Origin: Candidatus Bipolaricaulota bacterium
Lineage (GTDB): Bacteria > Bipolaricaulota > Bipolaricaulia > UBA7950 > UBA9294
DNA length: 64,000 nucleotides
Direction of reading: 5' to 3'
Assembly (NCBI GenBank): GCA_030611415.1
Contig: JAUWPW010000002.1
Span: 19,761 to 83,760, forward strand
Positions within the stretch are counted from its first letter, which is position 1; every line of letters begins with the position of its first letter. The notes under the pieces were generated by a model that saw only the letters and a program-made list of their open reading frames with translations, was not told where the DNA came from and ran no database searches. Made by a program: the position numbers and the translations under genes. Shown piece by piece: positions 24,680-46,361 of this stretch.

Positions 24680-25264
24680 ATGCTAAAAGATATGAAACAC
24701 GAGGATGTAGTGGGTAAAGGGGTTCGTGCTTTGCGACAACACAAGGGATGGACGCTAGAGGAACTCTCCTCCCGTTGTCGTCTTTCGATAAGTTTCCTTT
24801 CCCAGATTGAACGGGGCCTTTCTTCTCTTTCGATCTCGTCGCTTCATTCGATCTGTGAAGCGCTGGAAGTGCCGATGACCCACTTTTTTGCTACTACTAC
24901 CGCAGAGGGGCCCCTTGTGGTGAGAGCAGGTAAACCCCGTAGCAGGCTACGGATCGAGGATTCACAGGTAACGTACAACTTCTTGTCTAGATTGACGCCC
25001 GAGCGGGTGCTCGAGGCGTTGATCGCGGAATATCCGCCTCACTACAACCCTCCGCTTGTCACGCACGAGGGCGAGGAGTTTGGCTACGTCCTTGAAGGAA
25101 AGGTTTTGCTACACGTCACCGATCAGGAAGAGATGCTCGTACCAGGCGATAGTTTCCACATCATTTCCTCACAGCTGCACACGGTTCAAAACACGTCGGA
25201 TAAGCCGGCAAGGATCTTGTGGGTACTCACAATGAAACTCTTAGAAAGAGGAGGACATCTGTAA
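24680..25264 (+). CDS. XRE-family HTH + C-terminal cupin transcriptional regulator
   Basis: N-terminal HTH_3 (LRQHKGWTLEELSSRCRLSISFLSQIERG) and C-terminal cupin (GEEFGYVLEGKVLL). First gene of the plus-strand supercluster; TAATG overlap with hyuA. Confidence 0.75.
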   Translation: MLKDMKHEDVVGKGVRALRQHKGWTLEELSSRCRLSISFLSQIERGLSSLSISSLHSICEALEVPMTHFFATTTAEGPLVVRAGKPRSRLRIEDSQVTYNFLSRLTPERVLEALIAEYPPHYNPPLVTHEGEEFGYVLEGKVLLHVTDQEEMLVPGDSFHIISSQLHTVQNTSDKPARILWVLTMKLLERGGHL

Positions 25265-29332: not shown

Positions 29333-30907
29333 ATGAAAGGAAAGATTGTTGTTGTTGTTGGTTTGGTGATTTTGAGTATCGGTTTGGTCGCATGGGGCGG
29401 AGGTCCTTTGCGAGCTACTTTTGCTTGGCCAACTTACATTGACCCAGCAGTAGGATCTGACTTCTCCAGTTCCTCATCGCTCGTTAATCTGTACGACTCC
29501 CTTGTCTACCCGGATGCAAAAGGGGATCCTCTGCCACATGTAGCCACTGCGTGGGAAACGTCCGATGATACACTGATCTGGACTTTCCATCTGCGTGACG
29601 ACGTTACGTTCCACGACGGAACTCCTCTCACGGCGGAGGATGTAAAGTACTCCATGGACCGTCTGACGACGATCGGGGAGGGATACGCGTTCCTGTTCTT
29701 GGGACGATTGGCAAGCACGGATGTGATTGATGATTACACTGTGCAGTTCAATCTAGCTCAACCGTTTGGACCTTTCCTCTCCACACTTTACCGATTGTAC
29801 ATCCTGAACAAGGATGTTGTGGAGGCTAATATCGAGACGCCTGGCCCCTATGGAGATAAGGGCGACTATGGAAAGGGATATCTCCTTGTCAACGATGCTG
29901 GCAGTGGCCCGTACGTGTTGAAGGAGTTCAGGCTCGAAGAAGAGCTGGTGATGACGAAGAATCCGAACTACTGGATTCCCATTGACGTCGACGCACCTGA
30001 CGAAGTCCGGTTCATAGGAACGACCGAGGCAGCGACGGTCCGTACGATGATGTCGCGCAAGGAACTGGAGATCGCCGATCAGTGGCAGTCTCAAGAAGCA
30101 CTGGTCGCTTTGGATGCGATGGAAGGTGTGGATATCGCTGCATTCTCACCGGGGACCGCGTTTTACCTGATGATGAATACGCGTATTCCACCCACAGACG
30201 ATATCCATTTCCGCAAGGCAATGGCCTGGGCGACCGACTACGCGACGGTGGTGGAGTACATCTTCCCAGGTGCGTTCCAAGCCTGCGGTCCCATTCCTCA
30301 GAACATTCCTGGGGCAGATCCGACCGTCTTCCAGTACTATCGAGACCTCGATAAGGCGCGCGAGGAGCTTGCACTCTCCAAGTACTCTGCTGATGAGTAC
30401 GAGATTGAGTTCCACTGGATTGCCGAAGTCCCGGACGAGGAGAAGGTCGCGCTCTCCTTCATGTCCAACATGGCCGATATCGGGATCAACATAAAGGTCG
30501 TCAAGGTTCCGTGGATGTCGGTTGTCGAGGAGATGGGGGCAGTTGAAACCAGCCCGCACATCGTCTCGATCTTCGATTCATCTCACTACCCTGAGGCGGG
30601 CTCCCTGCTTGAATCGCGCTACCACTCAAACTCGGCTCCTACATGGGAGCAGAACGAGTGGCTGCTCGACACTGGACTTGATGCCATGCTTGAGTCGGCG
30701 ATAAACACGGTCGACTGCGCAGAGCGATTCGCGAAGTACGCAGGATTACAGCACATGATCACCGCTCTGTGTCCGACCATCTTCCTCTTTGAGCAGGTGG
30801 AGAAGCATGCCTATCAGTCGGCTTATATAGATTGGCCGACGGCGGCTGGCGAGGTGAACCCAGTGATGGGCTACAACCTGGCGGCTCGCTTCATCAAGGT
30901 GGATTAG
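29333..30907 (+). CDS. ABC transporter substrate-binding protein, family 5 (peptide/opine/nickel type)
   Basis: Signal peptide plus SBP_bac_5 fold; TAAGGAGG SD. Confidence 0.85.
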   Translation: MKGKIVVVVGLVILSIGLVAWGGGPLRATFAWPTYIDPAVGSDFSSSSSLVNLYDSLVYPDAKGDPLPHVATAWETSDDTLIWTFHLRDDVTFHDGTPLTAEDVKYSMDRLTTIGEGYAFLFLGRLASTDVIDDYTVQFNLAQPFGPFLSTLYRLYILNKDVVEANIETPGPYGDKGDYGKGYLLVNDAGSGPYVLKEFRLEEELVMTKNPNYWIPIDVDAPDEVRFIGTTEAATVRTMMSRKELEIADQWQSQEALVALDAMEGVDIAAFSPGTAFYLMMNTRIPPTDDIHFRKAMAWATDYATVVEYIFPGAFQACGPIPQNIPGADPTVFQYYRDLDKAREELALSKYSADEYEIEFHWIAEVPDEEKVALSFMSNMADIGINIKVVKVPWMSVVEEMGAVETSPHIVSIFDSSHYPEAGSLLESRYHSNSAPTWEQNEWLLDTGLDAMLESAINTVDCAERFAKYAGLQHMITALCPTIFLFEQVEKHAYQSAYIDWPTAAGEVNPVMGYNLAARFIKVD

Positions 30908-31016
30908 TCGCAAAATAAGCAGATCCCTCTTATCGGGGATTCATGCGCCAATGGGTGGGAAAGGTTTATCTCTTTCCCACCCCTCCTTGGGACCCACAAG
31001 AGAAGGACGGCAATTG

Positions 31017-32045
31017 ATGAGTATGTTGAAGTTCTTGGGTAAACGGTTGGCGTTATCGCTCTTCGTCCTGTTTGGACTCTCTATCCTGATCTTTACAATC
31101 TCGCGGATCTTGCCTGGCGATCCGGTTCGCATGGCCTTGGGATCGCGAGCCCCCCAGTGGGCTGTTGATAACCTTCGCGAGCAGATGCACCTGAACGACC
31201 CTCTCTACGCGCAATATTACTACTGGCTCACCGGCGCAGTGCGTGGCGACTTAGGTCAATCTCTGTTTACCCGGCGGGCGGTGATCGAGGATGTGAGGGA
31301 ATTTCTCCCTGCAACGATGGAACTCGCTCTGTCCGCTGGGGTGATCATGGCGGTCTTCGGGATCCTTCTCGGTGCAGTCTCCGGTCGCTACAGCAACACG
31401 TGGATCGACAACAGCGTTCGCATCTTCTCGTATATCGGGATCGTTACACCATCTTTTGTCTTTGCTATCCTGTTCTTGTTGTTGTTCGGCTATGTGCTGA
31501 ACGTGCTGCCGACCATGGGACGGCTTAGTCCATGGATAGCGCGCCCTCCCGTGATAACAGGAATGGTCTCCCTGGATGCCCTGCTGAGTGGCAACTTCGC
31601 TGCTTTTGGTGATGCTATTAGACACCTGATTCTCCCGGCGGTCAGCTTGGCATTGGGAGGAATGGCCCAGGAGGCACGGATCACCCGTTCCACGATCAGT
31701 GACAATCTGCGCAAGGACTACATCGCATCGGCAAAGGGATTTGGGGTCCCTGAGCGCTTGGTTATGTTCAAATACCTCCTCAAGCCGTCTTTGATCCCAA
31801 CCGTCTCCATTCTGGGGTTAGATTTTGCCTCCCTCATCGGAAACGCTTTCTTAGTGGAACTCATATTCAACTGGCCCGGTTTTTCACGGTATGGGATCCA
31901 CGCCATGTTGAACAAGGATCTGAATGCCGTTTCCGCCGTGGTGATGGTCCTAGGAGTGATCTTTATCATCGTCAACATCCTCGTTGACTTGATAGTGGCA
32001 TGGCTTGATCCACGTATCCGGCTGGGCGCCGAAAGGGGCAAATAA
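31017..32045 (+). CDS. ABC transporter permease (DppB/OppB-like)
   Basis: MSMLKFLGKRLALSLFVLFGLSILIFTISRILPGDP N-terminus; the ORF-track start 30951 is rejected. Confidence 0.85.
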   Translation: MSMLKFLGKRLALSLFVLFGLSILIFTISRILPGDPVRMALGSRAPQWAVDNLREQMHLNDPLYAQYYYWLTGAVRGDLGQSLFTRRAVIEDVREFLPATMELALSAGVIMAVFGILLGAVSGRYSNTWIDNSVRIFSYIGIVTPSFVFAILFLLLFGYVLNVLPTMGRLSPWIARPPVITGMVSLDALLSGNFAAFGDAIRHLILPAVSLALGGMAQEARITRSTISDNLRKDYIASAKGFGVPERLVMFKYLLKPSLIPTVSILGLDFASLIGNAFLVELIFNWPGFSRYGIHAMLNKDLNAVSAVVMVLGVIFIIVNILVDLIVAWLDPRIRLGAERGK

Positions 32046-32047
32046 AC

Positions 32048-32932
32048 ATGAACTACTCGCGGAATACTTTGCTGAAACGTCGTGCGGAGGGGTTCAAGAA
32101 GGGTTGGTATAAATTCTCTCGAAATCCTGTCTCCGTACTGGGATTATTCTTCGTATTGACGGTCTCGTTTCTTGCGATCTTTGCCCCTTACGTGTCGCCG
32201 TACCCAACACACGCTAGCCGGTTCGTCAATTTTGCCGAGGCTGGTCAGCCCCCGAGCTTGAAACACCTGTTTGGAACGGATGTATTTGGGCGGGATATCC
32301 TGTCACGAGTCTTCTTTGGCTTCCGCTATTCGTTGATGATGGGGGTCGTCGTTCTGTCGCTTGTAGTTATTCCAGGAGTTGTATTAGGGTTGGTTGCCGG
32401 GTACTACCGTGGGACGTGGATCGATACAGTGATCATGCGGACTACCGATATCTTCCTTGCCGTTCCGCCACTTATCCTGGCTTTGGCCATCTGTTCGGTC
32501 CTTACCCCAAGCGTTTTCAACGCGATGATGGCCGTATCTTTGATGTGGTGGCCGTGGTATACCCGACTGGTCTACGGTCTTTCCTCGTCGTTGCGTACCG
32601 AGTTCTTCGTGCAGGCGGCCGAGGTTACCGGAGCGAGCCGTTCTCACATCCTATTCCGCGAGATCCTTCCCAACTGTGTCTCCAGTATCTTCACCAAGAT
32701 GAGCTTGGATATGGGGTGGGTGATCCTTATCGGTTCGGCTCTGAGTTTTGTTGGGTTGGGGGCTCAGCCTCCGATCCCGGACCTGGGCACTATGGTGGCC
32801 GATGGGGCCAAATACCTACCGGATCAGTGGTGGATTACGATCTTCCCTGCCTTCGCGATCATGATCACGGTCCTTGGCTTCAATCTGATTGGCGACGGGT
32901 TCCGCGATTTGTTCGCGCTTGAGGAGGTCTAG
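32048..32932 (+). CDS. ABC transporter permease (DppC/OppC-like)
   Basis: 294 aa BPD_transp_1 permease, 2 nt after the previous gene. Confidence 0.85.
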   Translation: MNYSRNTLLKRRAEGFKKGWYKFSRNPVSVLGLFFVLTVSFLAIFAPYVSPYPTHASRFVNFAEAGQPPSLKHLFGTDVFGRDILSRVFFGFRYSLMMGVVVLSLVVIPGVVLGLVAGYYRGTWIDTVIMRTTDIFLAVPPLILALAICSVLTPSVFNAMMAVSLMWWPWYTRLVYGLSSSLRTEFFVQAAEVTGASRSHILFREILPNCVSSIFTKMSLDMGWVILIGSALSFVGLGAQPPIPDLGTMVADGAKYLPDQWWITIFPAFAIMITVLGFNLIGDGFRDLFALEEV

Positions 32933-32933
32933 G

Positions 32934-33920
32934 ATGGGAGAAACTTTGCTGGAGATCGGGAACCTGCACGTCGAGTTCAAGGTCTACGAGGGACGTCTCC
33001 GAGTCCTGAACGGCGTCAACCTGTCGGTTCAAGTTGGAGAAAGGGTGGGTTTGGTCGGGGAGGCGGGTTGTGGGAAGACGACCACAATGAAGTGTGTGCT
33101 TAAGATCCTTACCTCTCCTCCAGGAAAGATCACGGAAGGGAAGATTCTACTTCACGATAAGGATGTCTTGACCATGGGATCACAGGAGATGCAGCGAGTT
33201 CGCGGACACGGGATCTCCATGATCTTCCAGGATCCGACCGCTGCGTTGAATCCCGTGTTCACCGTGGGTGATCAGTTGATGTCGGTCATTAAGTACGGAT
33301 CCAAGGGGTCCCTCTCGAAAAAGGAGATCAAAAAGCGGGCGATCGGAACGCTACGGGAGGTACGGCTCCCCGATCCGGAGCGAATATTCACCAACTATCC
33401 CGTGCAACTCTCCGGGGGGATGCGGCAGCGGGTCTGCATCGCGATGGCGCTTTCCACCGAACCAGAGCTGCTGCTCGCAGATGAACCAACTACCTCGCTC
33501 GATGTAACGATCCAGGATCAAGTCCTCCGTTTGTTGAATGAGCTTGTTGAGAGGCATGGAACTTCTGTTATCTTCATCACCCACAGTTTGGGGGTAGTGC
33601 GCGAGATGGCCGACCGTGTCTACGTAATGTACGCGGGAAACATCATCGAAGGGGCGCGTAAGGAGGAACTATTCGCCAACTGGTTGCATCCATATACCCT
33701 TGGTCTGATGAACGCCCTCCCCAAGCTAACCGGTGGCGGGATTGCAGAAGGAATCCCAGGGAGGATCCCGGAGTACCTCGATCCACCGTCCGGCTGTCGG
33801 TTCCATCCGCGTTGCCCACGGGCAATGCAGCAATGCAGTCAGTCAATCCCACCTGTTGTGCACGCAGCTGACGATCACGATGTAGCTTGTTTCCTGTACC
33901 GAGGTGAGACCGATGAATAG
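32934..33920 (+). CDS. ABC transporter ATP-binding protein (DppD/OppD-like, with oligopeptide C-terminal domain)
   Basis: GEAGCGKTT Walker A, LSGGMRQRVCIAMAL signature. Confidence 0.85.
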   Translation: MGETLLEIGNLHVEFKVYEGRLRVLNGVNLSVQVGERVGLVGEAGCGKTTTMKCVLKILTSPPGKITEGKILLHDKDVLTMGSQEMQRVRGHGISMIFQDPTAALNPVFTVGDQLMSVIKYGSKGSLSKKEIKKRAIGTLREVRLPDPERIFTNYPVQLSGGMRQRVCIAMALSTEPELLLADEPTTSLDVTIQDQVLRLLNELVERHGTSVIFITHSLGVVREMADRVYVMYAGNIIEGARKEELFANWLHPYTLGLMNALPKLTGGGIAEGIPGRIPEYLDPPSGCRFHPRCPRAMQQCSQSIPPVVHAADDHDVACFLYRGETDE

Positions 33921-34911
33921 CAAGATCCTTGAGGTCGAAAAGCTGCGCAAGTTCTTCATCACCTCTCGCGGAACGGTGCGTGCGGTCGATGAGGTCTCGT
34001 TCTCCGTGGAGGAAGGGGAGACGTTGGGACTGGTTGGGGAATCGGGCTCGGGTAAGAGTACGGTTGCGTACACCGTGGTCGGGCTCCACTCGCCAACTTC
34101 AGGACAGATCCGATTCAAGGGAGAGGATATCTCGCGGCCGGTATCGAAACGCCCCAAAGCACTGAAACAATCGATCCAGATCGTCTTTCAGGATCCAGGA
34201 ACATCGCTCAATTCACGGCGAACGATCCAACAGATCCTTGAGCTCCCGCTCAAGGTGCACCACTTGGGAAACTCACGCGACCGCAAGGAACGTGTAGTGG
34301 AGCTCTTGGAGCGCGTAGAGCTCCCGCCAGACTACATGTACAAGTCCCCAAACATGTTGGGCGGCGGAGAACGGCAGATGGTAGCGATCGCCCGCGCACT
34401 GGCGACAAACCCGAAGTTGGTTATTCTCGACGAACCAACTTCCGCATTGGATGTATCCATTCAGGCAAAGATCATCAACATGCTGCTCCGGTTTCAGGAA
34501 GAGATGAAACTCTCCTATCTCTTTATCACACATGATTTGAGCTTGATGAGGAATGTCTCTACACGGGTCGCCATCATGTACTTGGGAAAGATTTGTGAGG
34601 TGGCCCCAACGATGAAGTTCTTCTCAAATCCGTTTCATCCATATACAAAGATGCTCCTCTCCTCTATTCCTGTTGTGCTGCCAGAGGAAGAGGCGGTGAA
34701 GCCGGCGAAGATCACTTCGGAAGGGGAGATCCCCAGCCCGGTGAATGTCCCGCCCGGTTGCGGATTTCACACACGCTGCAGGGAGGTAAATGGGATCTGT
34801 TCACAGAAGATTCCTGAGATGATGGAGGTGGAACCTGGGCACTTTGTCTGGTGCCACCTGTTTCCCGTGGTCACGACCCCGACAAACTTAGAAAAAGGAG
34901 TGAGCGTATGA
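33913..34911 (+). CDS. ABC transporter ATP-binding protein (DppF/OppF-like)
   Basis: GESGSGKST Walker A, LGGGERQMVAIARAL signature; overlaps the previous gene by 8 nt. Confidence 0.85.
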   Translation: MNSKILEVEKLRKFFITSRGTVRAVDEVSFSVEEGETLGLVGESGSGKSTVAYTVVGLHSPTSGQIRFKGEDISRPVSKRPKALKQSIQIVFQDPGTSLNSRRTIQQILELPLKVHHLGNSRDRKERVVELLERVELPPDYMYKSPNMLGGGERQMVAIARALATNPKLVILDEPTSALDVSIQAKIINMLLRFQEEMKLSYLFITHDLSLMRNVSTRVAIMYLGKICEVAPTMKFFSNPFHPYTKMLLSSIPVVLPEEEAVKPAKITSEGEIPSPVNVPPGCGFHTRCREVNGICSQKIPEMMEVEPGHFVWCHLFPVVTTPTNLEKGVSV

Positions 34912-35678
34912 GCAAGATACTGTGGATCGATCCGGTGGGAACTGATCTTTTCGATCAGCCGATCAAGGAGTTCTTGGAGACGGCGAAGGGCCCGGAGACA
35001 AAGCTTGATGTTGTCTCTCTCGCGCGAGGACCGATGCACCTTGAGTATCATTACTACGAGGCTTTGATCCTAACCGATACGCTACATGCCGTGCGGAAGG
35101 CTGAGCTCGACGGATACGACGCTGCTGTAATCGGCTGCTTCTACGACCCCGGACTTCGCGAAGCCCGCGAGCTCAGCGAGCGACTTGTCGTGACCGCGCC
35201 GGCTGAGGCAGCGATGCACATCGCCACAACCCTGGGTCATACCTTCTCCATCCTCGTCGGGCGGAAGAAGTGGATCCCCAAGATGCATGAAAACGTAGTG
35301 AAGTACGGCTTCACCGATCAGCTTGCCTCGTTCAAATCGCTTGGAATGGGGGTCTACGAGTTCCAGAAGGATCCTGCGGAGACTGCACGCCGGATGCGTG
35401 CGGCGGCGAGGGAAGCGGTGGAGGTTGATGGAGCAGAGGTGATCATCCTTGGATGCACCATCGAGTTCGGCTTCTACAAGGAACTACAGGAAGAGTTAGG
35501 GGTTCCTGTTATCGATGCCGTTCTCGCACCGCTCAAGTTCGCGGAGTTCCTGACGGGGCTGAAGGATCAATTCAATTGGACACACAGCAAGATCTACGGG
35601 TATCAATCCCCTCCACGAGAGGAGATCGTTGAGTGGAAGCTGGAAGAACAGTACGGAACCTCGGGGTTGTGGGGGTAG
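34908..35678 (+). CDS. Asp/Glu/hydantoin racemase-family protein (hydantoin racemase HyuE-like)
   Basis: About 256 aa; two conserved Cys motifs (VIGCFYDPG and IILGCTIEFG) like the catalytic Cys pair of hydantoin racemases. ATGA overlap with the ATPase gene. Confidence 0.7.
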   Translation: MSKILWIDPVGTDLFDQPIKEFLETAKGPETKLDVVSLARGPMHLEYHYYEALILTDTLHAVRKAELDGYDAAVIGCFYDPGLREARELSERLVVTAPAEAAMHIATTLGHTFSILVGRKKWIPKMHENVVKYGFTDQLASFKSLGMGVYEFQKDPAETARRMRAAAREAVEVDGAEVIILGCTIEFGFYKELQEELGVPVIDAVLAPLKFAEFLTGLKDQFNWTHSKIYGYQSPPREEIVEWKLEEQYGTSGLWG

Positions 35679-35683
35679 GGAAT

Positions 35684-37285
35684 ATGGAGACGAAGAGAGA
35701 GTTGCGCGTTGGATTCGATGTTGGAGGGACCTTCACTGATGGGGTGCTCATGTGTGGGCGGGAGGTGTTGGCCAAGGCGAAATCACTGACGACCCCGGAC
35801 GTAACCGGAGGGATCGTTGAGGCCCTTGAGGCGGTGATGACAAAATCCGGGGCCAATCCGGCAGAAGTAGCCATGGTCTCGTTGGGTACTACCCATACGA
35901 CGAACGCCCTTATTGAGCGGAGGAACCTGAATCAGGTGGGGATCTTCCGGTTGGGAGCTCCAGCGACAACGGCCATCCCTCCGTTGACCGGCTGGCCGGA
36001 GAGCCTAAAGGAGGCGATCGGCGGACACGAACTCGTGCATATCATCCGCGGTGGATCGGAGTATGACGGGCGCGACATCGTTCCGCTCGACAAGAAAGCG
36101 ATCGAGGACGCCTGCAAATCGATGAAGGGAAAGGTCGATTCGGTGTCAATTACCGGGGTCTTCTCCCCGATCATCAACGACCACGAGGAGCAATCAGCGG
36201 AGATTGTGCGCAATGTGCTCGGGGAAGATATTCCCATTACGCTCTCCCACCGCATTGCCACCATCTCACTCCTGGAACGGGAGAACTCGACCATCCTCAA
36301 CGCTTCCGTCATTACGGTGATGCGGCGCGCGGTCAACTCCTTGAAAGCTGCTGTGCGCAAGCGAGGGATCGATGCTCCTCTATTCATCGTGCAGAACGAC
36401 GGAAGCGTGATGTCTGCCGACTACGCTATCGACTACCCGATATTCACCGTTGCTTCCGGGCCGGCGGCGAGCGTCCGCGGGTCGGTATACCTTTCGGGAA
36501 TCGAGGACGGGGTGGTGGTCGATATCGGAGGGACATCAACCGATGTAGCCTACATCGTCAAGGGGTTCCCACGGGAGTCGTCGATCACGGTGAACATCGG
36601 TGGGGTCAAGACGAACATCCGCTGCCCCGACCTGCTGTCCATTGCTCTTGGCGGCGGGACGATCGTTAAACACAAGGATGATGATGTAATCGAACTCGGA
36701 CCGGAGAGCGTCGGCTACAACCTAGTTCGACTAGGTAAGTCGTTCGGCGGGCCGCTGCTAACCGTGCATGACACAGCAGTCGCGTTGGGCAAGCTACAAC
36801 AGAAGCTCGATGTTTTTAAGACCGATTACGTCACCCACCCCGAGAAGATCAACGCTGTGCCGAAGGCGTTAATCAAGAACGCATGGGTTGCGATCAAGAC
36901 TACGATTGAGGAGGTCATCGACAAGATGAAGACGACACCCGAACCGGTCCCCGCCATCTTTATCGGTGGTGGAGCGTTGGTTGTCCCTAGGGAGAAGATC
37001 ATCGGTGTCAGTGAGGTCCTCATGCCAGATCACTTTGAAGTGGGAGGCGCCGTGGGAACAACGATTGCTGAGATCGGAGCCTATGCGGAAGGAGTCGTCG
37101 ATCTTGATATTGAAGACCGCGCCGAGGCAATCGTCGAGGTAACTGAACGCGCCAAGGATAACGCCGAGGCAGCCGGGGCGATTCGTAACACCGTAGAGGT
37201 GATTGACGTAGAAGAGATTCCCTTTACGTACATGCCTGGGAAGCGCGAGAAGATCCGGATTAGGGTGAAAGGGCAGGTGCTCTAA
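35684..37285 (+). CDS. hydantoinase/oxoprolinase-family protein, HyuA-like but about 150 aa shorter
   Basis: ELRVGFDVGGTFTDGVL N-terminus and Hydantoinase_A-type middle domain. Start is ATG 35684 or GTG 35633. Confidence 0.7.
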   Translation: METKRELRVGFDVGGTFTDGVLMCGREVLAKAKSLTTPDVTGGIVEALEAVMTKSGANPAEVAMVSLGTTHTTNALIERRNLNQVGIFRLGAPATTAIPPLTGWPESLKEAIGGHELVHIIRGGSEYDGRDIVPLDKKAIEDACKSMKGKVDSVSITGVFSPIINDHEEQSAEIVRNVLGEDIPITLSHRIATISLLERENSTILNASVITVMRRAVNSLKAAVRKRGIDAPLFIVQNDGSVMSADYAIDYPIFTVASGPAASVRGSVYLSGIEDGVVVDIGGTSTDVAYIVKGFPRESSITVNIGGVKTNIRCPDLLSIALGGGTIVKHKDDDVIELGPESVGYNLVRLGKSFGGPLLTVHDTAVALGKLQQKLDVFKTDYVTHPEKINAVPKALIKNAWVAIKTTIEEVIDKMKTTPEPVPAIFIGGGALVVPREKIIGVSEVLMPDHFEVGGAVGTTIAEIGAYAEGVVDLDIEDRAEAIVEVTERAKDNAEAAGAIRNTVEVIDVEEIPFTYMPGKREKIRIRVKGQVL

Positions 37286-38463
37286 TGAGCAATCCGCGAT
37301 CAAACGCACGTGCCATCCTTGAGAAGTGGGGGATCAAGAACTTCCGCGTTATCGATAAGGAGGCAATCAGCGAGATCACGCTGGGAGCCTCCATCCTCGC
37401 TACAGGTGGCGGAGGAGATCCGGAGATCGGTCTCCTATGGACCTACAAGGTGATCGATGAGGGGAAGGAGATCCTCATGGTCGATCCAATAGATGTTCCC
37501 GATGGTATCCAAACAGCGAGCACGGCCTGCCTGGGAGCGGCGATTGTCCTCACGGAGAAGCCGCCGAGTGGAGAGGTGTTAAACCTGGCGATGGGGCGCC
37601 TCGAACAGTACCTGGGAAGACCGATCCAGGCGACGATCCCACTCGAATGTGGAGGGGTCAACTCTCCTGTCGCCTACGCTGCTGCCGGAGAACTTGGTGT
37701 TCCCGTAATCGATGTTGATGGGATGAATCGCGCCTTCCCCGAACTACAAATGACATCGTGGGTGACACATGGTGTACACTCCTCTCCCACTGTCTCGGTG
37801 GATAACAGGAAGAACGTTACCGTGATCGATACCGGAGACGATGATGTGTTAGCGGAGACACTCGCCCGTCGGGTAGCGATGGCCTATGGTGGTATCTCGT
37901 GGATCGCCACCTACCCTCTGACTGGGAAGCAGGTGAAAGAGACCTCCATCCTCTACTCGCAGAGCATTGCCTGGGCGGTGGGACGTGCAGTTATGCGTGC
38001 CCGCAGGGAACACCTGGATCCGATTGGGGAGCTTCTGAAGAGCCTGAAGAAGGAGCGAAACGTGGAAGGGTTCCGCGTGTTTAGCGGAAAGATTGTGGAT
38101 ATCAACCGCGACTTCGGTTCGGAGACAAATAAGGGATTTACATTAGGATCGGTTACTGTAGATGGTATCGATACGTACAAGGGTCAGACAGCTACCCTCG
38201 ATTTTCAGAACGAGTGGCTAAACCTGCGCATCGATGGGAAGGTTCTCTGTTTGCCACCGGACCTTATCGCAATCCTCGACTCAGAGACCGGAGAACCGAT
38301 CCGCACCGACATCATGAAGTACGGCTATCGGGGAACCATTGTCCTCATCCCGGCGCACGAGCGGATGAGAACAGCAAAAGGGATCGAGATGTTCGGTCCG
38401 CGTCACTTCGGCTACGACCTGGATTATGTCCCTGTAGAAGAGCTTAACAGTGACAGGAGGTGA
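37285..38463 (+). CDS. DUF917-family protein, copy 1
   Basis: ASILATGGGGDPEIGLLW and PLECGGVN...GVPVIDVDGMNRAFPELQMT motifs as I recall for DUF917; TAATG overlap with the HyuA-like gene. Confidence 0.7.
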   Translation: MSNPRSNARAILEKWGIKNFRVIDKEAISEITLGASILATGGGGDPEIGLLWTYKVIDEGKEILMVDPIDVPDGIQTASTACLGAAIVLTEKPPSGEVLNLAMGRLEQYLGRPIQATIPLECGGVNSPVAYAAAGELGVPVIDVDGMNRAFPELQMTSWVTHGVHSSPTVSVDNRKNVTVIDTGDDDVLAETLARRVAMAYGGISWIATYPLTGKQVKETSILYSQSIAWAVGRAVMRARREHLDPIGELLKSLKKERNVEGFRVFSGKIVDINRDFGSETNKGFTLGSVTVDGIDTYKGQTATLDFQNEWLNLRIDGKVLCLPPDLIAILDSETGEPIRTDIMKYGYRGTIVLIPAHERMRTAKGIEMFGPRHFGYDLDYVPVEELNSDRR

Positions 38464-38472
38464 GAGAAAGAT

Positions 38473-38742
38473 ATGGATCTGAAAGCCATTATCGAATCTG
38501 ATGCAAGGTACCGCAACGTGCTTCAGGAGATTATCGATACCCCGTACATCGAACGGTCGACGTTGGAGGAGAAACTGAACCTCCCCCGAGCCGATCTAGA
38601 GTCGCTGTTGACGGTTCTTTCTGAGAAGATGTTGATCCTAGAGCTTGCTGGCCAGGCGGATTCAAGCGTTGAGTCACGTGTATTGAAAACAGTGTACCTG
38701 GTCAACCCTGAGGAAGAGAAGGGCATTCGTGAACACCTCTAA
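38473..38742 (+). CDS. small hypothetical protein (89 aa, acidic)
   Basis: AGGAGGTG SD about 11 nt upstream; overlaps the M24 start by 14 nt. Confidence 0.4.
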   Translation: MDLKAIIESDARYRNVLQEIIDTPYIERSTLEEKLNLPRADLESLLTVLSEKMLILELAGQADSSVESRVLKTVYLVNPEEEKGIREHL

Positions 38743-39847
38743 CTCTACGGAACACGCAAGGCGGCTTGACGCGCTGCTTGAACGGATGCGCGAGCATGAG
38801 TTGGGGCTCGTCCTTCTCTTCGATCGGGACAATATTCGCTACTTCACGGGTTTCCGGTTGAACCGGGTGGTCGCCTCCATCTTGGCGATCTCCCCTGAGG
38901 AAGGTCCGACTTACATCGTGGCGAAATTGGACCTAAACCGTGCGAAAAGGGATGGATGGATCGAGCGGGTCATCCCGTTTCCAGAGGACACCCCAAATTA
39001 CCTCGACGCTCTGCGTCCTCTGTTCGGCAATTCGGGCAAACGGATCGGCGTTGAAAAGGACTCGCTGACTCTGTCGCAGGCCGAGTATCTACGTGGTTTG
39101 AGTAGTGAGAAGAGTGAGTTCGTCGATGTGCGCGCTATCACATCCGAGTTGCGTGCAATCAAGTCTGATGAGGAGATCGCCTGCCTTCGGCGAGCGGCCG
39201 AGATTGCCAGTAATGTCATGGAACTGGTGCAGGGTGCTATTCGGCCGGGCGTTCGCGAGATCGAGCTCTCCTCCTGGACAGAGTACCTCATTGGACAGGA
39301 AGGCGCGGAAGGTGCCTCGTTTGAACCGTTCTTCATGTCGGGCGAGAACGCGTGGCTTCCGCAGCGAATCTCATCGCAGAAGGTGTTGGCTGAAGGGGAA
39401 CTGGCTCTGTTGGATATGGGCGCGATCTACGATGGTTATTGCTCAGATATCACACGGACTTTTGCCATTGGTGACATCTCACCGGAGCAAGAGCAAATCT
39501 TTCGGGTTGCACGAGAGGCGCAACAAGCGGGGATCGAAGCGATTCGTCCCGGTGTTCGTGCCTGTGATGTTGATGCCGCTGCACGAACTGTGATCGAGGA
39601 CGCTGGCTTCGGGGAGTACTTCCCGCACCTCACTGGGCATGGAATTGGGATCTCCTCGCATGAGATGCCGATTGCGGACCGCGGGGTAGAGACGATCCTC
39701 CAATCGAGTATGGTCCTGACCGTGGAACCGGGGATCTATCTTCCGGGGATAGGTGCAGCGCGCGTCGAGGACATGGTGGTCGTCACCCCACTCGGATGTG
39801 AGGTTCTGACCAGCGCTCCGCGTGGACTAACGGGGAAAAAGGAGTAA
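38729..39847 (+). CDS. M24-family Xaa-Pro peptidase/creatinase-fold hydrolase
   Basis: Creatinase_N-like N-domain (RLDALLERMREHELGLVLLFDRDNIRYFTGF) plus pita-bread metal-ligand region (D..D...H...E..E pattern). Confidence 0.8.
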   Translation: MNTSNSTEHARRLDALLERMREHELGLVLLFDRDNIRYFTGFRLNRVVASILAISPEEGPTYIVAKLDLNRAKRDGWIERVIPFPEDTPNYLDALRPLFGNSGKRIGVEKDSLTLSQAEYLRGLSSEKSEFVDVRAITSELRAIKSDEEIACLRRAAEIASNVMELVQGAIRPGVREIELSSWTEYLIGQEGAEGASFEPFFMSGENAWLPQRISSQKVLAEGELALLDMGAIYDGYCSDITRTFAIGDISPEQEQIFRVAREAQQAGIEAIRPGVRACDVDAAARTVIEDAGFGEYFPHLTGHGIGISSHEMPIADRGVETILQSSMVLTVEPGIYLPGIGAARVEDMVVVTPLGCEVLTSAPRGLTGKKE

Positions 39848-39849
39848 AA

Positions 39850-40995
39850 GTGGGTGTAAGAGAGATCCTTCGCAAGTGGGGAGTTACCGACTTCCAAGTG
39901 ATCGATAAGAAGGCGCTTTCGGAGATCACCTTAGGTGCGTCGATCCTGGCCACCGGAGGCGGGGGAGATCCTGAGATCGGCCTTCTGTGGGCGTATAACG
40001 TGGTCGATCAGGGAAAGGAGATCCTCCTTATTGACCCTGAGGCGATGCCCGATGAGGCTTTGGCGGCGATCGCCGGGTGCCTTGGAGCAGCGCTTGTTCT
40101 CACCGAGAAACCACCGAATGGTCAAGAGCTCTTCTGGTGTTATGACAGTCTGCGCCGTTACATGGGCAAGTCGATCGAGGCTGTTGTTCCCCCGGAGGCC
40201 GGTGGGGTCAATACGCCGGTCCCGATGGCCGTGGCTGGGGCAGTCGGGATTCCCGTCATCGACGCCGATGGTATGGGACGCGCCTTTCCCGAGCTGCAGA
40301 TGACCTCCTTCTACATCCACGGGGTCTCCCCGTCGCCAACGGCGGCGGCGGATGAGAAGGGACACGTGACTATCTGCGACGCATCAGATGCACTGCTGAC
40401 GGAGCGGATCATCCGCAACGCGGCGATGGCCTACGGGGGTATCTCATGGATCGCGGGGTATCCGATGACCGGGCGCCAGCTCAAGGATACGGCGATCTTG
40501 CGATCTATATCCATGGCCTGGGATCTGGGGAAGCGCGTATTCAACGCGCGGCGCAAGCACCTCGATCCTATTGCTGAGGCTATTAATCTCACCGGAGGAT
40601 ACCGTGCGTTTCAAGGGAAGATCGTCGACATCGATCGGGAATTCGGGGCGGAGAAGACTAAGGGTTTCTCCCTTGGGCGGATCACGGTGGAGGGGACCGA
40701 CGATTTCAAGGGACGGACCGTCGTCGTCGATTTCCAGAACGAGTGGTTGAACCTGGAGATCGATGGAGAAGTTCGCTGCATGCCGCCGGATCTGATCTGC
40801 ATCCTCGACCCGGCGACCGGGGAACCGATCCGCACAGACATCGTGCGCTACGGATATCGAGGGACTGTGCTTCTCATCCCCGCACACGAACGGATGCGGA
40901 CAGAACGGGGGATCGCCACGTTCGGTCCTCGCTACTTCGGTTACGATCGGGACTACATCCCTGTGGAGAGGCTCATGGAGAGCACAAGTGGATGA
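39850..40995 (+). CDS. DUF917-family protein, copy 2 (paralog of 37285..38463)
   Basis: Same motifs as copy 1 (ASILATGGGGDPEIGLLW, GGVNTP...GIPVIDADGMGRAFPELQMT), high identity by eye; GTG after AAGGAG. Confidence 0.7.
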   Translation: MGVREILRKWGVTDFQVIDKKALSEITLGASILATGGGGDPEIGLLWAYNVVDQGKEILLIDPEAMPDEALAAIAGCLGAALVLTEKPPNGQELFWCYDSLRRYMGKSIEAVVPPEAGGVNTPVPMAVAGAVGIPVIDADGMGRAFPELQMTSFYIHGVSPSPTAAADEKGHVTICDASDALLTERIIRNAAMAYGGISWIAGYPMTGRQLKDTAILRSISMAWDLGKRVFNARRKHLDPIAEAINLTGGYRAFQGKIVDIDREFGAEKTKGFSLGRITVEGTDDFKGRTVVVDFQNEWLNLEIDGEVRCMPPDLICILDPATGEPIRTDIVRYGYRGTVLLIPAHERMRTERGIATFGPRYFGYDRDYIPVERLMESTSG

Positions 40996-41975
40996 GGATT
41001 CAGCGTTTTGTCCAAGTCGTCGACACTCATACTGCTGGTGAACCGACGCGTGTGGTCCTTGACGGACTTCCTCCCATCCCCGGCAAAACGATGGCCGAGC
41101 GGCGTGCGTGGTTCGATGGACCGGGCAACGACCTGCGGCGGTTCCTCCTGCGGGAACCACGTGGACACACGGATATGTTCGGAGCAGTTATCACCCCGCC
41201 CATTAACCCGGCAGCAGATTATGGACTGATCTTCCTCGATAACGGCGGGACGCTTTCGATGTGCGGGCATGGAACGATCGGAGCAGTGACCGCCCTGGCT
41301 GAACTAGGACGAATCCACAAGAAAGAGGTTCTACTCGATACTCCATCCGGCCTTGTGACCTGTCACCTTCATTGGAAAGAGGGCGAGGTTCAGGATGTTA
41401 CCTTTCGTAATGTTCCTTCTTTCTTCCTAAGGACTGTGCAATGGAAAGGGGTCCCGCTTCACCTTTCCTACGGGGGGAATCTCTTTGCTCTAGTGGAGGC
41501 AAGTTCCCTGGGCGTTGAACTTAAGCGGCAGAATATACGTGAGATCGTGGATCTTGGAATGATGATCAGAAGCTGGACCAACCGGAACCTCACCTTTCAC
41601 CATCCCGCGACAGGGAATCCTTTGTTAGTAGATCTGGTGGAATTCTACGAGGAGACCGATCCTCCGAGGAATGTTGTCGTTTTCGGAAGGGGACAGGTCG
41701 ACCGGTCCCCTTGTGGAACGGGAACCTGCGCCAAGATGGCTTTTCTCCACGCGGAAGGGAAGCTCGCTGTGGGGGAGGAATACCGCTACCAAAGCATCTT
41801 GAAGACAGAGTTTACAGGAAAAATAATCTCTGAGACGAACGTAGGAGATACCCCAGGGATCATCCCCGAGGTGAGAGGATCTGCTTACGTAATGGCTCTT
41901 GGCTCCCTCGTTCTTACGAAGGACGATCCGTTTCCGGCAGGCTTTGATCTGGAAAATGAAGAGGTAAAGCACTAA
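40992..41975 (+). CDS. proline racemase / 4-hydroxyproline 2-epimerase family enzyme (Cys/Cys type)
   Basis: MRIQRFVQVVDTHTAGEPTRVV N-terminus; both catalytic Cys motifs (SMCGHGTIG and DRSPCGTGTCAKMA). ATGA overlap with DUF917 copy 2. Confidence 0.85.
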   Translation: MRIQRFVQVVDTHTAGEPTRVVLDGLPPIPGKTMAERRAWFDGPGNDLRRFLLREPRGHTDMFGAVITPPINPAADYGLIFLDNGGTLSMCGHGTIGAVTALAELGRIHKKEVLLDTPSGLVTCHLHWKEGEVQDVTFRNVPSFFLRTVQWKGVPLHLSYGGNLFALVEASSLGVELKRQNIREIVDLGMMIRSWTNRNLTFHHPATGNPLLVDLVEFYEETDPPRNVVVFGRGQVDRSPCGTGTCAKMAFLHAEGKLAVGEEYRYQSILKTEFTGKIISETNVGDTPGIIPEVRGSAYVMALGSLVLTKDDPFPAGFDLENEEVKH

Positions 41976-42053: not shown

Positions 42054-44150
42054 ATGACAGACTATCGAATCAAGAAACATCCTATTTTGTCGGTTGAATC
42101 AAGCAAGAACATCACCTTCTATTGGCAGGGACAACCGCTTATCGCCAAGGAAGGCGAGATGATTACTTCTGCTCTTTTTGCCAATGGAGTCAAGACCTTT
42201 GGACATCATTCCAAAGATGGTGCGCCGCAGGGTATCTTTTGTGCCAATGGTCAGTGCGCCCAATGCCTGGTAATTGCGGAGGGGGTACCGGTAAAGGCCT
42301 GTATGACGCCAGTTGAGGCAGGTATGCGCGTCGAGCCAAGTGCTGGCTTGCCTGATCTGCCCAAGGTAGAACAAGTTCCATCTATGAGCAAAACGGAAAG
42401 CATAGCCGTGCCTGTGCTCATTATCGGTGGCGGCCCGGCAGGAATGTCAGCAGCTGCCGAACTTGGAAGCCACGGGATCAGAGCGCTACTTGTAGATGAC
42501 AGGCATCGCCTGGGAGGGAAGCTTGTATTACAAACTCATCGCTTTTTTGGTTCTACCAATGCTGTTCACGCTGGAACACGGGGAATTGATATTGCTACAC
42601 AACTGGAGAACGAGACCAAGAAACATGACACAACCGATGTCTGGCTAAATAGCGTAGCTGTTGCAGTTTTCAGCGATCACAAAGTAGGTATTCTCCAGGA
42701 TAACAGAACCTATGTTCTTGTTCGACCACAGGTACTACTGGTAGCAACAGGAGCACGTGAACGGTCACTGGTCTTTAGGGGAAACACGCTGCCGGGTGTT
42801 TATGGTGCTGGGGCGTTTCAAACACTGGTCAATCGTGACTTGGTAAAACCTAGCAAACGGTTGTTTATCGTCGGTGGAGGGAATGTTGGATTAATTGCTG
42901 GCTATCACGCCCTTCAAGCCGGCATCCAAGTGGTAGGGTTAGTTGAGGCTTTGCCCGAGTGCGGCGGCTACAAAGTCCACAGGGATAAGTTGGTTCGCAT
43001 GGGCGTCCCTATTTACACTTCGCATACTGTTCTTAGTGCCAATGGTGAAACGCAAGTGAAATCTGTAACGATTGCTCGAGTTGACGAACATTTCCAAGCG
43101 ATTCGCGGAACGGAGAAATCATTTGCCTGTGACACAGTATTGATTGCCGTGGGATTGAATCCCGTGAATGAGTTCTACGAAAAGGCCCAGGAATACAAGA
43201 TGCAAGTATTTGCTGCGGGTGATGCACAAGAGATTGCCGAGGCATCCGCGGCAATGTTCACTGGTAAGATTGCGGGGCTAAAAGTAGCTAGAGCGCTTGG
43301 GGTAGATGTTGGGGAAATCCCTTCGGAATGGGCCCGGATGGCTGAGATCCTCAAGTCTGGTCATGGAAAAGTTGACCCGGAAGGAATTCCGACTCAGACG
43401 GAAGGTGTCTTTCCTATTCTTCACTGTTACCAAGAAATCCCGTGTGATCCTTGCGCATATGCTTGCCCATTAGGACTCATTGACATTGATGAAAGTGATA
43501 TCAGACATCGTCCCAAGTTTATCGGGCCTGAGATTGGCAAGAAGTGCATTGGCTGCGAGAATTGCATTACAGCTTGCCCGGGACTGGCAATCACATTGGT
43601 TGATTACCGGCAGGACAAACAGATGCCAACTGTGGCTCTTGCTTATGAGTTTCTTCAAGAGAGTATCAAGCAAGGGCAAACCGTTACCGTAGTCGACACT
43701 GAGGGAGAGGTGCTGGGTGAAGTAGAAGTGAAAAGCGTTCAACTCGCTGCAAAGAGAGATCATACTGCGGTTGTGAAAGTAGAGGCTCCCAAAGCTTATG
43801 CCAAACGCATTGCCGGAATCCGCGTACAGAAACCGTTGGTGTCTGCTCCGCTATCTGAGGTACCCGAGAACATGAAAGATGAGATGATCGTATGTCGCTG
43901 TGAACGGGTGACTGCAGGTGAAATCCGTCAACTGATTCGCGAGGGCTGCCGTGACATGAACGAGATCAAAGCGATAACACGAGCGGGAATGGGCGCATGC
44001 GGCGGTAAGACTTGCACTGAACTAATCAGACGAATCTTCCGTGAGGAAGGGATTTGTATAGAAGAGGTCAGCGAACTCGTTAAGCGTCCGTTGTTTGTTG
44101 AAGTTCCATTTGGGTCCTTCGCTGGCGTGAAGGAGGATAACGATGGATAG
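42054..44150 (+). CDS. Fe-S flavoprotein oxidoreductase alpha-like subunit (N-terminal 2Fe-2S, FAD/NAD(P) domain, 4Fe-4S, BFD-like 2Fe-2S)
   Basis: Cys clusters CANGQCAQC..C, CIGCENCITACP and CRCERVTAGEIR...ACGGKTC; GGGPAG and GGGNVG dinucleotide folds. Architecture like OoxA/HcnB/PdhA-type subunits. Start ATG 42054 or TTG 42003. Confidence 0.75.
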   Translation: MTDYRIKKHPILSVESSKNITFYWQGQPLIAKEGEMITSALFANGVKTFGHHSKDGAPQGIFCANGQCAQCLVIAEGVPVKACMTPVEAGMRVEPSAGLPDLPKVEQVPSMSKTESIAVPVLIIGGGPAGMSAAAELGSHGIRALLVDDRHRLGGKLVLQTHRFFGSTNAVHAGTRGIDIATQLENETKKHDTTDVWLNSVAVAVFSDHKVGILQDNRTYVLVRPQVLLVATGARERSLVFRGNTLPGVYGAGAFQTLVNRDLVKPSKRLFIVGGGNVGLIAGYHALQAGIQVVGLVEALPECGGYKVHRDKLVRMGVPIYTSHTVLSANGETQVKSVTIARVDEHFQAIRGTEKSFACDTVLIAVGLNPVNEFYEKAQEYKMQVFAAGDAQEIAEASAAMFTGKIAGLKVARALGVDVGEIPSEWARMAEILKSGHGKVDPEGIPTQTEGVFPILHCYQEIPCDPCAYACPLGLIDIDESDIRHRPKFIGPEIGKKCIGCENCITACPGLAITLVDYRQDKQMPTVALAYEFLQESIKQGQTVTVVDTEGEVLGEVEVKSVQLAAKRDHTAVVKVEAPKAYAKRIAGIRVQKPLVSAPLSEVPENMKDEMIVCRCERVTAGEIRQLIREGCRDMNEIKAITRAGMGACGGKTCTELIRRIFREEGICIEEVSELVKRPLFVEVPFGSFAGVKEDNDG

Positions 44151-45297
44151 TCATGACGTTATCATCATCGGTGCGGGAAGTGTGGGTATTCCTGCTGCCC
44201 TGGCAATGGCACGGGCCGGTCTCAAGATATTGGTGCTTGATAGGTTTGCCAGTGAGGGTCAAGGTTCAAGCAAATCTGCGATCGGCGGTGTCCGTGCCAC
44301 TCACTCTGACCCAACAAAGATCCGTTTGTGTAAGCGTTCCCTCGAAATCCTTTCTACATGGAAAGAAACTTATGGCCATGACATTGAATGGACTACAGGT
44401 GGCTATTCGTTTGTTGCCTACCGCGAGCAAGAGGAGAAAACACTTAAAGATTTGCTTAGAATACAACGCGCCTATGAGCTCAATATTGATTGGTGTGACA
44501 GGAATGAATTGCTCGATGTCATCCCCGATCTGAACCCAATCGATCTTATCGGCGGAACCTTCTCGCCCGATGATGGTCATTGCTCTACCCTGCTTGTTGC
44601 CCACGCTCTATACGAAGAGGCAAAGCGCACAGGAGCAGTCTTTCACTTTGGCGAGACGGTTGAAGCCATTCTCATCAACGGAGGACGTATACAGGGGGTA
44701 AGAACCAATAGGTGCGAATACCCCGCTAGGGTAGTACTAAATGCTGCCGGAGCGTGGGCAAAGCAAGTGGGAAGAATGGTGGGGTTTGAACACCCTGTGA
44801 ATCCCGATTCTCACGAAGCAGGAATTACTGAACCGGTTGCTCACTTTCTTGATCCAATGGTAGTTGATATCCGTCCCGCGCCAGGCTCACTAAACTACTA
44901 CTTCTACCAGCTTTCTACCGGACAGGTTGTATTCTGCATTACGCCAAGTCCAAGTATTTGGGGGTTTGACTGTTCAGAAACCAGCACATTCTTGCCAATG
45001 ATCTCCCATCGCATTGTTGACTTGATGCCACGACTGGCAAACATCCGCGTGCGTCGCAGTTGGCGTGGTCTTTACCCAATGACTCCGGATGGCTCACCAC
45101 TAGTTGGGTGGGCCAAGGAGATAGAGGGATATCTAATGGCAATTGGAATGTGTGGTCAGGGGCTCATGCTCGGGCCAGGTTTAGGCGAGCTTCTTGCTCG
45201 CATGGTCACACAAGACGAACTGTCTTCGAAAGATCAGGAAACCTTGGGATACCTGTCACCGTATCGAGATTTCTCTGCCGCGGAACAACTCAAATAG
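44143..45297 (+). CDS. FAD-dependent oxidoreductase beta-like subunit (DAO family; sarcosine-oxidase-beta / D-hydroxyproline dehydrogenase-like)
   Basis: DVIIIGAGSVGIPAALAMARAG FAD fold, 384 aa; AGGAGG SD; overlaps the alpha stop. Confidence 0.8.
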   Translation: MDSHDVIIIGAGSVGIPAALAMARAGLKILVLDRFASEGQGSSKSAIGGVRATHSDPTKIRLCKRSLEILSTWKETYGHDIEWTTGGYSFVAYREQEEKTLKDLLRIQRAYELNIDWCDRNELLDVIPDLNPIDLIGGTFSPDDGHCSTLLVAHALYEEAKRTGAVFHFGETVEAILINGGRIQGVRTNRCEYPARVVLNAAGAWAKQVGRMVGFEHPVNPDSHEAGITEPVAHFLDPMVVDIRPAPGSLNYYFYQLSTGQVVFCITPSPSIWGFDCSETSTFLPMISHRIVDLMPRLANIRVRRSWRGLYPMTPDGSPLVGWAKEIEGYLMAIGMCGQGLMLGPGLGELLARMVTQDELSSKDQETLGYLSPYRDFSAAEQLK

Positions 45298-46052: not shown

Positions 46053-46361
46053 ATGCCATACTGGCTTACCTATCTAGAGCTAACAGCTTTAGGAGTGCTC
46101 TTGTTCTTTGTTATTGGCATAACGTGTGTTGCTTGCATTGTGTTCTTTCGATGCATAGTAATGCACAAGGGGCTTAACGATACAGTGCGGTACTGCAAGA
46201 TGTATAAATGGACAATTCTCTTGGTAGTAGCCATAACGGTACTGTTTTGGGGTCTGCATATGGGAATAAGGATACCGTGCTTCTCGATTATTGAGACTGG
46301 CCTTTTTGTTATAGGAACCATTTGGGTAGCTCGAGGAGTGCTTCCAGCACTGTTTACATGA
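46053..46361 (+). CDS. small 3-TM membrane protein (immunity-protein-like)
   Basis: About 102 aa, three hydrophobic helices; AGGAG SD 8 nt upstream; ATGA overlap with the next gene. Confidence 0.55.
   Translation: MPYWLTYLELTALGVLLFFVIGITCVACIVFFRCIVMHKGLNDTVRYCKMYKWTILLVVAITVLFWGLHMGIRIPCFSIIETGLFVIGTIWVARGVLPALFT

Follow-up and report, generated by a model that had tools for sequence, protein, structure and literature searches.

The window in this study is a 64,000-nucleotide (nt) stretch of a contig from a Candidatus Bipolaricaulota bacterium (JAUWPW010000002.1), and its subject is a run of five intact genes at positions 35684-40995 that pairs a short HyuA-like protein with DUF917 proteins and a prolidase-like enzyme. 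Open reading frame (ORF) mapping and domain scans place on the + strand, in this order, a predicted ASKHA ATPase of 533 amino acids (the short HyuA-like protein, HyuAs; 35684..37285, with an alternative GTG start at 35633), a first DUF917 protein with S-Me-THD-like N- and C-terminal domains (DUF917-a; 37285..38463), an 89-amino-acid protein with a predicted winged-helix fold (38473..38742), an M24B Xaa-Pro dipeptidase-like metalloenzyme with Creatinase_N and Peptidase_M24 domains in Pfam (38729..39847), and a second DUF917 protein (DUF917-b; 39850..40995). The genes are tightly joined. HyuAs and DUF917-a are translationally coupled through a TAATG overlap (junction ctcTAATGagc), as had been read from the sequence in a preliminary description of this DNA, and the placement given there of the 89-amino-acid ORF and a creatinase/prolidase-fold M24 enzyme between two DUF917 copies is borne out as well. 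The small ORF is preceded by a GGAGG ribosome-binding site and is overlapped by 14 nt by the M24 start, and the GTG start of DUF917-b lies 2 nt past the M24 stop.

HyuAs matches the Pfam families Hydant_A_N and Hydantoinase_A (129 and 134 bits) but lacks Hydant_A_C, and no Pfam family matches its last 101 residues. A classical full-length HyuA encoded upstream in the same window carries Hydant_A_C at residues 506-676 and is 26% identical to HyuAs across the shared core. The roughly 150 C-terminal residues absent from HyuAs therefore correspond to a missing domain and not to a broken gene. The preliminary description was right to place this ORF in Hydantoinase_A and to note the absent residues, but its term "truncated" is misleading, since the form without Hydant_A_C is the norm for the HyuAs subfamily. 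The ASKHA phosphate and adenosine motifs (DxGGTxTD, DIGGT, and GGG) are conserved in all 72 HyuAs homologues compared.

The association of HyuAs with DUF917 extends far beyond this window. When the window proteins were mapped onto 80 genome loci (L007-L086) fetched around DUF917 homologues, every short HyuA-like gene (82/82) was located less than 100 nt (median 24) from a DUF917 gene on the same strand. This adjacency occurs in either gene order in both Bacteria and Archaea, including Bacillota, Bipolaricaulota, Chloroflexota, Actinomycetota, Desulfurococcales, Archaeoglobus, Thaumarchaeota, and others, and its sole exceptions among the matches are full-length classical HyuA proteins of 25-30% identity. 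The two proteins also occur as fusions. An exhaustive search with DUF917-a returned 3067 representatives at 50% identity; among the best 150 of these, at least 18 have lengths of 920-1067 residues and carry DUF917 at the C-terminus. Every full-length fusion scanned contains Hydant_A_N, Hydantoinase_A, S-Me-THD_N, and S-Me-THD_C, a domain order identical to the gene order in the window, and the named hosts are the deep-branching eukaryotes Ancoracysta twista, Anaeramoeba flamelloides, and Sulcionema specki (proteins P0389, P0407, and P0469).

HyuAs shares the Hydant_A_N/Hydantoinase_A ASKHA core and the nucleotide-binding motifs of the known HyuA+HyuB, OplAB, and CapAB systems, and it likewise stands beside an obligatory partner gene in a context of cyclic-amide and amino-acid catabolism. 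Unlike HyuA, however, it has no Hydant_A_C domain, and its partner has neither sequence nor fold similarity to HyuB; the window's classical HyuA/HyuB pair sits separately in the same operon. Profile comparison of DUF917 with HyuB, HyuA, and HyuAs gave hhalign probabilities below 1%, and a Foldseek search of the Protein Data Bank with an AlphaFold2 (AF2) model of DUF917 (mean predicted local distance difference test score, pLDDT, 79) matched only 2o3i. DUF917 was on these grounds rejected both as a divergent HyuB and as the missing C-terminal domain of HyuA. The matched structure, CV_3147 of Chromobacterium violaceum from structural genomics, is the only solved structure with the DUF917 fold (E 4e-17; template modeling (TM) score 0.70); it is only 19-20% identical to the window proteins and has no assigned function or ligand. 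As such, the constant adjacency, the fusions, and the lack of HyuB homology uphold the earlier proposal of a two-component module distinct from HyuA/HyuB, and HyuAs and DUF917 are a fixed pair that, from gene order and domain content, forms one functional unit. The pairing is not a categorically new discovery, since it is already visible in existing annotations, but we found no published report in which a HyuAs-DUF917 enzyme had been assayed, nor one describing the cassette of five genes.

Several other arrangements of these genes were observed. One short HyuA-like gene lies amid five DUF917 paralogues behind a Dpp-type ATP-binding cassette (ABC) transporter in an Anaerolineales UBA6055 genome (L061, 7395-14352), and tandem DUF917 pairs are also present in L081 and L086. 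A minimal plasmid-borne module occurs on pGEOTH01 of Parageobacillus thermoglucosidasius (L087, 3492-11684), where a sigma-54 activator, a DUF917 protein, a HyuA N-terminal-like protein, a cytosine-type permease, a further DUF917 protein, and a hydantoinase-family protein are encoded. In L069 (4291-5571, - strand), a 426-residue protein without a Pfam match is found beside a distant DUF917 paralogue (~30% identity) and a sigma-54 activator, an arrangement repeated in L071, L073, L026, L048, and L054. The equivalent region of L073 gives a 19%-identity match to HyuAs, and the 426-residue protein may be a very divergent ASKHA partner.

Both DUF917 copies score well above the gathering cut-off of 27 bits for PF06032 and PF20906 (147 and 207 bits for DUF917-a, 174 and 212 bits for DUF917-b), which agrees with their earlier assignment to DUF917 on the basis of a GGGGDP motif. 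An alignment of 379 residues gives 62% identity between the two, and the sequence GGGGDPEIG occurs in both. Across 102 DUF917 sequences, 42 residues show at least 95% conservation; both copies retain every one of them, together with the family motifs GGGG, E..GG.N, D.D..RAFPE, NE, and PD and a universal polar core (E86, E116, N121, D138, D140, R144, E148, K212, N297, E298, and D314). In a neighbor-joining tree of the 102 sequences, orthologues of the two copies form sister clades that are jointly sister to a generic DUF917 clade linked to NCS1 permeases. Each of the two clades covers several phyla, and thus the duplication is old and both copies have been retained. At six motif-adjacent positions, DUF917-b, the ancient paralogue, keeps the generic state, whereas DUF917-a carries the fixed changes E93V, A117C, P125A, G143N, F154W, and K170R. 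These substitutions suggest that the HyuAs-coupled copy has specialized; DUF917-b may provide a second specificity or act as a heteromer partner of DUF917-a.

The preliminary description also called DUF917 uncharacterized, as did a 2023 preprint (10.1101/2023.09.25.559410), and the NCBI product name on plasmids is still "DUF917 domain-containing protein". This statement is out of date for the family as a whole, which is now named S-Me-THD-like in Pfam and includes the NCBIfam equivalogs thiohydantoin desulfurase and S-methyl thiohydantoin desulfurase (NF058529 and NF058532). Judging by these model names, some members are hydrolases acting on hydantoin-like rings. The characterized desulfurases catalyze hydrolytic steps of ergothioneine catabolism. 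Literature searches on thiohydantoin desulfurase, ergothionase, and named diketopiperazine hydrolases returned nothing usable, so our statements on characterized DUF917 enzymes draw on model names and on general background. The window copies share the two-domain architecture of the desulfurases and align to both models over their full length, but they score 60-89 bits against cut-offs of 440 and 450, which makes them distant paralogues; assignment as thiohydantoin desulfurase orthologues was rejected for this reason. Moreover, unlike the desulfurases, the clade of the window copies is tied to HyuAs, M24, and proline enzymes, and no ergothioneine-pathway genes are found among the annotated genes at 24.7-45.3 kb. 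DUF917 is also a large family: in addition to the 3067 representatives mentioned above, it spans Bacteria, Archaea, and eukaryotes, and homologues are present on 151 sequenced plasmids, including those of Rhizobium, Lactiplantibacillus, and Haloferax.

The order HyuAs, DUF917-a, small protein, M24, DUF917-b was found in Bipolaricaulota, Thermacetogeniaceae, Coprothermobacterota, Thermovenabulum, Thermoanaerobacterales, an uncultured bacterium, and Bacillus canaveralius, as well as in cultured Sporosarcina ureilytica, Biomaibacter acetigenes, Cytobacillus oceanisediminis, Salinicoccus roseus, and Pseudogracilibacillus, a spread that takes in several thermophilic Bacillota and cultured Bacilli. 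Among the variants, M24 is not in place in L019, and L021 and L022 have no DUF917-b. The surrounding genes are more changeable. The importer is of the Dpp-type ABC, NCS1, or MFS class depending on the genome, and the regulator is of the XRE-cupin or PucR type, with sigma-54 activators mainly accompanying the generic HyuAs/DUF917 pairs. In 51 of 61 loci, the gene immediately preceding the generic pair encodes an NCS1 permease. Recurrent accessory genes encode a hydantoin-type racemase, proline racemase, proline dehydrogenase, M19 dipeptidases, and extra classical HyuA/HyuB pairs. Selection acts on every member of the core. Six independent metagenome contigs carry the same genes with 98-100% identity, and the ratio of nonsynonymous to synonymous substitution rates (dN/dS), computed against orthologues from four related genomes, is 0.04-0.17 across the five genes, indicative of purifying selection: 0.04-0.06 for DUF917-a, 0.05-0.08 for DUF917-b, 0.05-0.11 for HyuAs, 0.11-0.17 for M24, and 0.12-0.15 for the 89-residue ORF, which reaches 0.51 in the near-identical L007 pair, where substitutions are few. 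Pseudogenes and chance neighbors were rejected on the basis of these ratios and of the synteny across phyla, and the refuting possibility named in the preliminary description, that the two DUF917 copies are pseudogenes, is excluded. The tandem arrangement that the preliminary description had reported is thus a conserved cassette and not a chance neighborhood, although that description missed its link to racemases, proline dehydrogenase, and a transporter, which together point to a proline-yielding substrate.

The solved structures nearest to the M24 protein are the proline dipeptidases 3q6d, 1pv9, and 1wy2. In alignment with 3q6d, the D, D, H, E, E metal ligands are all conserved (motifs LDxG, SDITRT, GHGIG, VEPG, and R(V/I)ED), and prolidases score 225 bits against 78 bits for creatinase, although the score of 230 bits on the PepQ equivalog does not reach its cut-off of 630. 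A creatinine/creatine pathway, for which look-alikes of N-methylhydantoinase, creatinase, and sarcosine oxidase could be proposed, was set aside because of these ligands and scores and because of the flanking proline racemase and dehydrogenases.

The 89-residue protein is conserved in all cassette loci at lengths of 82-96 residues and carries the invariant motif PYIE...LEL.SQADSS.ESRVPKK.YL.NPE. Its family comprises 263 clusters, all of about 90 residues and none with a Pfam domain; it has neither a Pfam nor an NCBIfam model and was seen only within this cassette. An AF2 model (pLDDT 80) is matched by Foldseek to MarR/ArsR-type winged helices (TM 0.65-0.77, probability 1.0), with the conserved basic stretch forming the predicted wing, whereas curated helix-turn-helix (HTH) families gave only sub-threshold matches (best E-value ~0.001). 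Judging from the model, the protein could serve as a regulator specific to the cassette; as most loci already possess a separate regulator, it may instead be a small subunit.

In this Bipolaricaulota (Acetothermia) genome, the cassette is part of an operon extending over approximately 24.7-45.3 kb, and all genes at 24680-45297 are closely spaced on the + strand. The probable first gene encodes a regulator of XRE-type HTH and cupin architecture (24680..25264; Pfam HTH_3 and Cupin_2, with a weak PuuR-like NCBIfam match). It is followed by the classical HyuA of 686 residues (25264..27324; Hydant_A_N, Hydantoinase_A, and Hydant_A_C) and by a classical HyuB (27321..29054; Hydantoinase_B, 556 bits) whose start is uncertain, as the GTG at 27321 in the ORF listing overlaps the HyuA stop. 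Both are closest to caprolactamase while remaining under the equivalog cut-offs, and HyuA scores 551 bits on its nearest NCBIfam model, caprolactamase alpha, whose cut-off is 1000. A Dpp/Opp-type ABC importer occupies 29333..34911, with a substrate-binding protein (29333-30907), two permeases (31017-32045 and 32048-32932), and two ATPases (32934-33920 and 33913-34911), as assigned from precomputed Pfam families of identical genes in L001 and from NCBIfam matches of the binding protein. Immediately before HyuAs lies an Asp/Glu/hydantoin-family racemase (34908..35678; PF01177, 118 bits), in which both candidate catalytic Cys motifs (GCFYDPG and LGCT) are present in the translation; its nearest structures are hydantoin and allantoin racemases and the epimerase OpaE. 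A scan of 24-43.9 kb for promoters and terminators yielded fewer sites than shuffled controls.

Downstream of the cassette, a proline racemase family enzyme (40992..41975) overlaps DUF917-b by ATGA. It scores 326 bits on Pro_racemase, contains both catalytic Cys motifs (SMCGHG and DRSPCGTG), and has the true proline racemases 7pb3, 6r76, and 1w61 as its nearest solved structures, but it does not reach the NCBIfam equivalog cut-off (343 against 556). Proline racemase genes accompany the cassette in 14 of about 22 loci. Next to it lies a two-subunit flavin/Fe-S dehydrogenase (42054..45297; alpha 42054-44150, beta 44143-45297, by Pfam) whose nearest structures are 1y56_A and 1y56_B, which we take to be the L-proline dehydrogenase complex of Pyrococcus horikoshii. 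These downstream genes resemble the proline racemase/L-proline dehydrogenase clusters of Thermococcales. Unlike in those clusters, the proline genes here are accessory to the HyuAs/DUF917/M24 core, and in S. roseus the 1y56-like dehydrogenase is replaced by an unrelated PutA-type Pro_dh.

Base composition and sequence identity bear on how the cassette is inherited. The G+C content is 55-57% at 30-42 kb against approximately 46-51% for most other parts of the window, with two other 2-kb blocks at 54-55%, and this shift hints at lateral acquisition. The genomes closest to the locus are metagenome-assembled genomes of Candidatus Acetothermia/Bipolaricaulota, and cassette proteins from Bipolaricaulota and Bacillota share 70-75% identity. 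The raised G+C content and this identity together suggest that the cassette moves laterally.

With moderate confidence, and by analogy with HyuA-type enzymes, we hypothesize that the five genes form the invariant core of a laterally mobile catabolic operon for the ATP-dependent ring opening of a proline-containing cyclic amide, which HyuAs, with the DUF917 proteins and the prolidase, probably opens and digests. An imported substrate would be epimerized by the racemase where needed. HyuAs would then use ATP to activate the carbonyl of the ring N-H amide, the step that HyuA performs in hydantoinase, oxoprolinase, and caprolactamase, and DUF917 would bind the ring and perform the hydrolytic step in the role of HyuB. 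The linear Xaa-Pro product would be cleaved by the M24 prolidase, and the resulting D- or L-proline would be racemized and oxidized. Proline as the product is suggested by the invariant prolidase-like M24, the recurrent proline racemase, and the two unrelated proline dehydrogenases. A small chiral cyclic amide as the substrate is favored by the racemase and by importers of the NCS1 or dipeptide type.

Our leading candidate for this substrate, offered as a hypothesis, is a proline 2,5-diketopiperazine, cyclo(Xaa-Pro). Such a ring fits best because only its secondary amide can tautomerize and be O-phosphorylated, because cleavage there would release Xaa-Pro, a prolidase substrate, and because the ring resists ordinary peptidases. 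Proline diketopiperazines form spontaneously from peptides. Two further points strengthen the fit: the papers found here name no enzyme that degrades diketopiperazines, and certain Bacillus, Leifsonia, and Rhizobium strains with hydantoin-cleaving activity are reported to degrade these compounds too (PMC3852281). DUF917 proteins, hydantoin racemases, dipeptide ABC transporters, and peptidases are also enriched near cyclodipeptide oxidases that lack a cyclodipeptide synthase (10.1101/2023.09.25.559410). We advance only tentatively, and with considerable doubt, the stronger proposal that HyuAs and DUF917 constitute the missing ATP-dependent diketopiperazine hydrolase, with DUF917 as a non-homologous replacement of HyuB, and that the cassette represents widespread scavenging of peptidase-resistant proline diketopiperazines, especially in thermophiles.

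Several points weigh against ring opening of a proline-containing amide by this route. For HyuAs-DUF917 pairs, the use of ATP, the phosphorylated intermediate, and the hydrolytic step are all posited by analogy, and the window DUF917 copies reach only the 60-89 bits given above on the desulfurase models. No proline racemase or dehydrogenase lies nearby in L018, L019, L088-L090, or L092, and the proposed route leaves the retention of two DUF917 paralogues unexplained. The substrates for which NCS1 carriers are chiefly known are hydantoins, allantoin, and nucleobases, and diketopiperazines are not among them. Classical HyuA/HyuB genes, furthermore, often stand beside the cassette (window 25264-29054, L007, L019, L023, L090, and L091, with three pairs in Cytobacillus oceanisediminis), and it is ambiguous which enzyme opens which ring. 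This repeated proximity suggests that two different ATP-dependent ring-opening enzymes may operate in one pathway. The characterized relatives of DUF917, the thiohydantoin desulfurases, appear to act alone, and DUF917 may for this reason be the sole catalyst. In that case it would be a cofactor-independent or metal hydrolase, and HyuAs would serve as an ATP-driven activase or chaperone comparable to GlmL/MutL of glutamate mutase, without phosphorylating the substrate. Weak matches of HyuAs to MutL/GlmL (PF13941, 27.5 bits; NF040745) and BcrAD_BadFG are in line with such a role, as are DUF917 paralogues with no adjoining HyuAs (L011, 19711-20769; L021, 16237-17322; and DUF917-b itself). However, the MutL and BadFG matches are short and marginal, and the strongest similarity of HyuAs is to substrate-phosphorylating subunits of the HyuA type, such as 5-oxoprolinase 6yra and N-methylhydantoinase 7hk5. 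We consider a non-phosphorylating activase distinctly improbable.

A hydantoin-type pathway deserves separate consideration. Here a 5-substituted hydantoin or a 2-substituted imidazolone-like ring would be imported by an NCS1 or ABC transporter, the racemase would be a true hydantoin racemase, HyuAs and DUF917 would act as an ATP-dependent hydantoinase (or DUF917 would hydrolyze the C2 substituent, like the thiohydantoin desulfurases), and M24 would remove a carbamoyl- or amidino-type group. The structures nearest to the racemase, the NCS1 permeases beside the generic pair, a CN_hydrolase in three loci, the naming of the DUF917 family for thiohydantoin desulfurases, and the reading of DUF917 proteins as putative hydantoinases in the cyclodipeptide oxidase preprint (10.1101/2023.09.25.559410) all favor it. 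The core, however, has no carbamoylase; its M24 enzyme possesses the full set of metal ligands and is closest to prolidases, not to creatinase; the recurrent proline racemase and the two unrelated proline dehydrogenases are not explained by ordinary hydantoins; and M19 dipeptidases are recruited too. We regard this pathway as unlikely. HyuAs additionally matches subunits of acetophenone and acetone carboxylases at 42-74 bits, and an ATP-dependent carboxylase or other non-hydrolytic enzyme could be envisaged by comparison with these members of the HyuA superfamily. The cassette encodes no HyuB-like Mn/Zn subunit and no homologue of the small gamma subunit, and its context is peptide and amino-acid catabolism, which leaves a carboxylase very improbable.

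Should DUF917 prove to be the obligatory partner of HyuAs in ring opening, the pair would represent a second and structurally unrelated kind of ATP-dependent cyclic amidase. If the diketopiperazine proposal is true, the cassette would supply candidate genes for the long-standing problem of how these abundant, peptidase-resistant compounds are degraded (PMC3852281). Because cultured strains such as S. ureilytica, S. roseus, and C. oceanisediminis carry the cassette, the idea is directly testable. Finally, we note that an unrelated cluster at 46322-47793, downstream of the operon, encodes a Peptidase_C39-like protein and several proteins without recognizable domains, according to the precomputed Pfam families of identical genes in L001.

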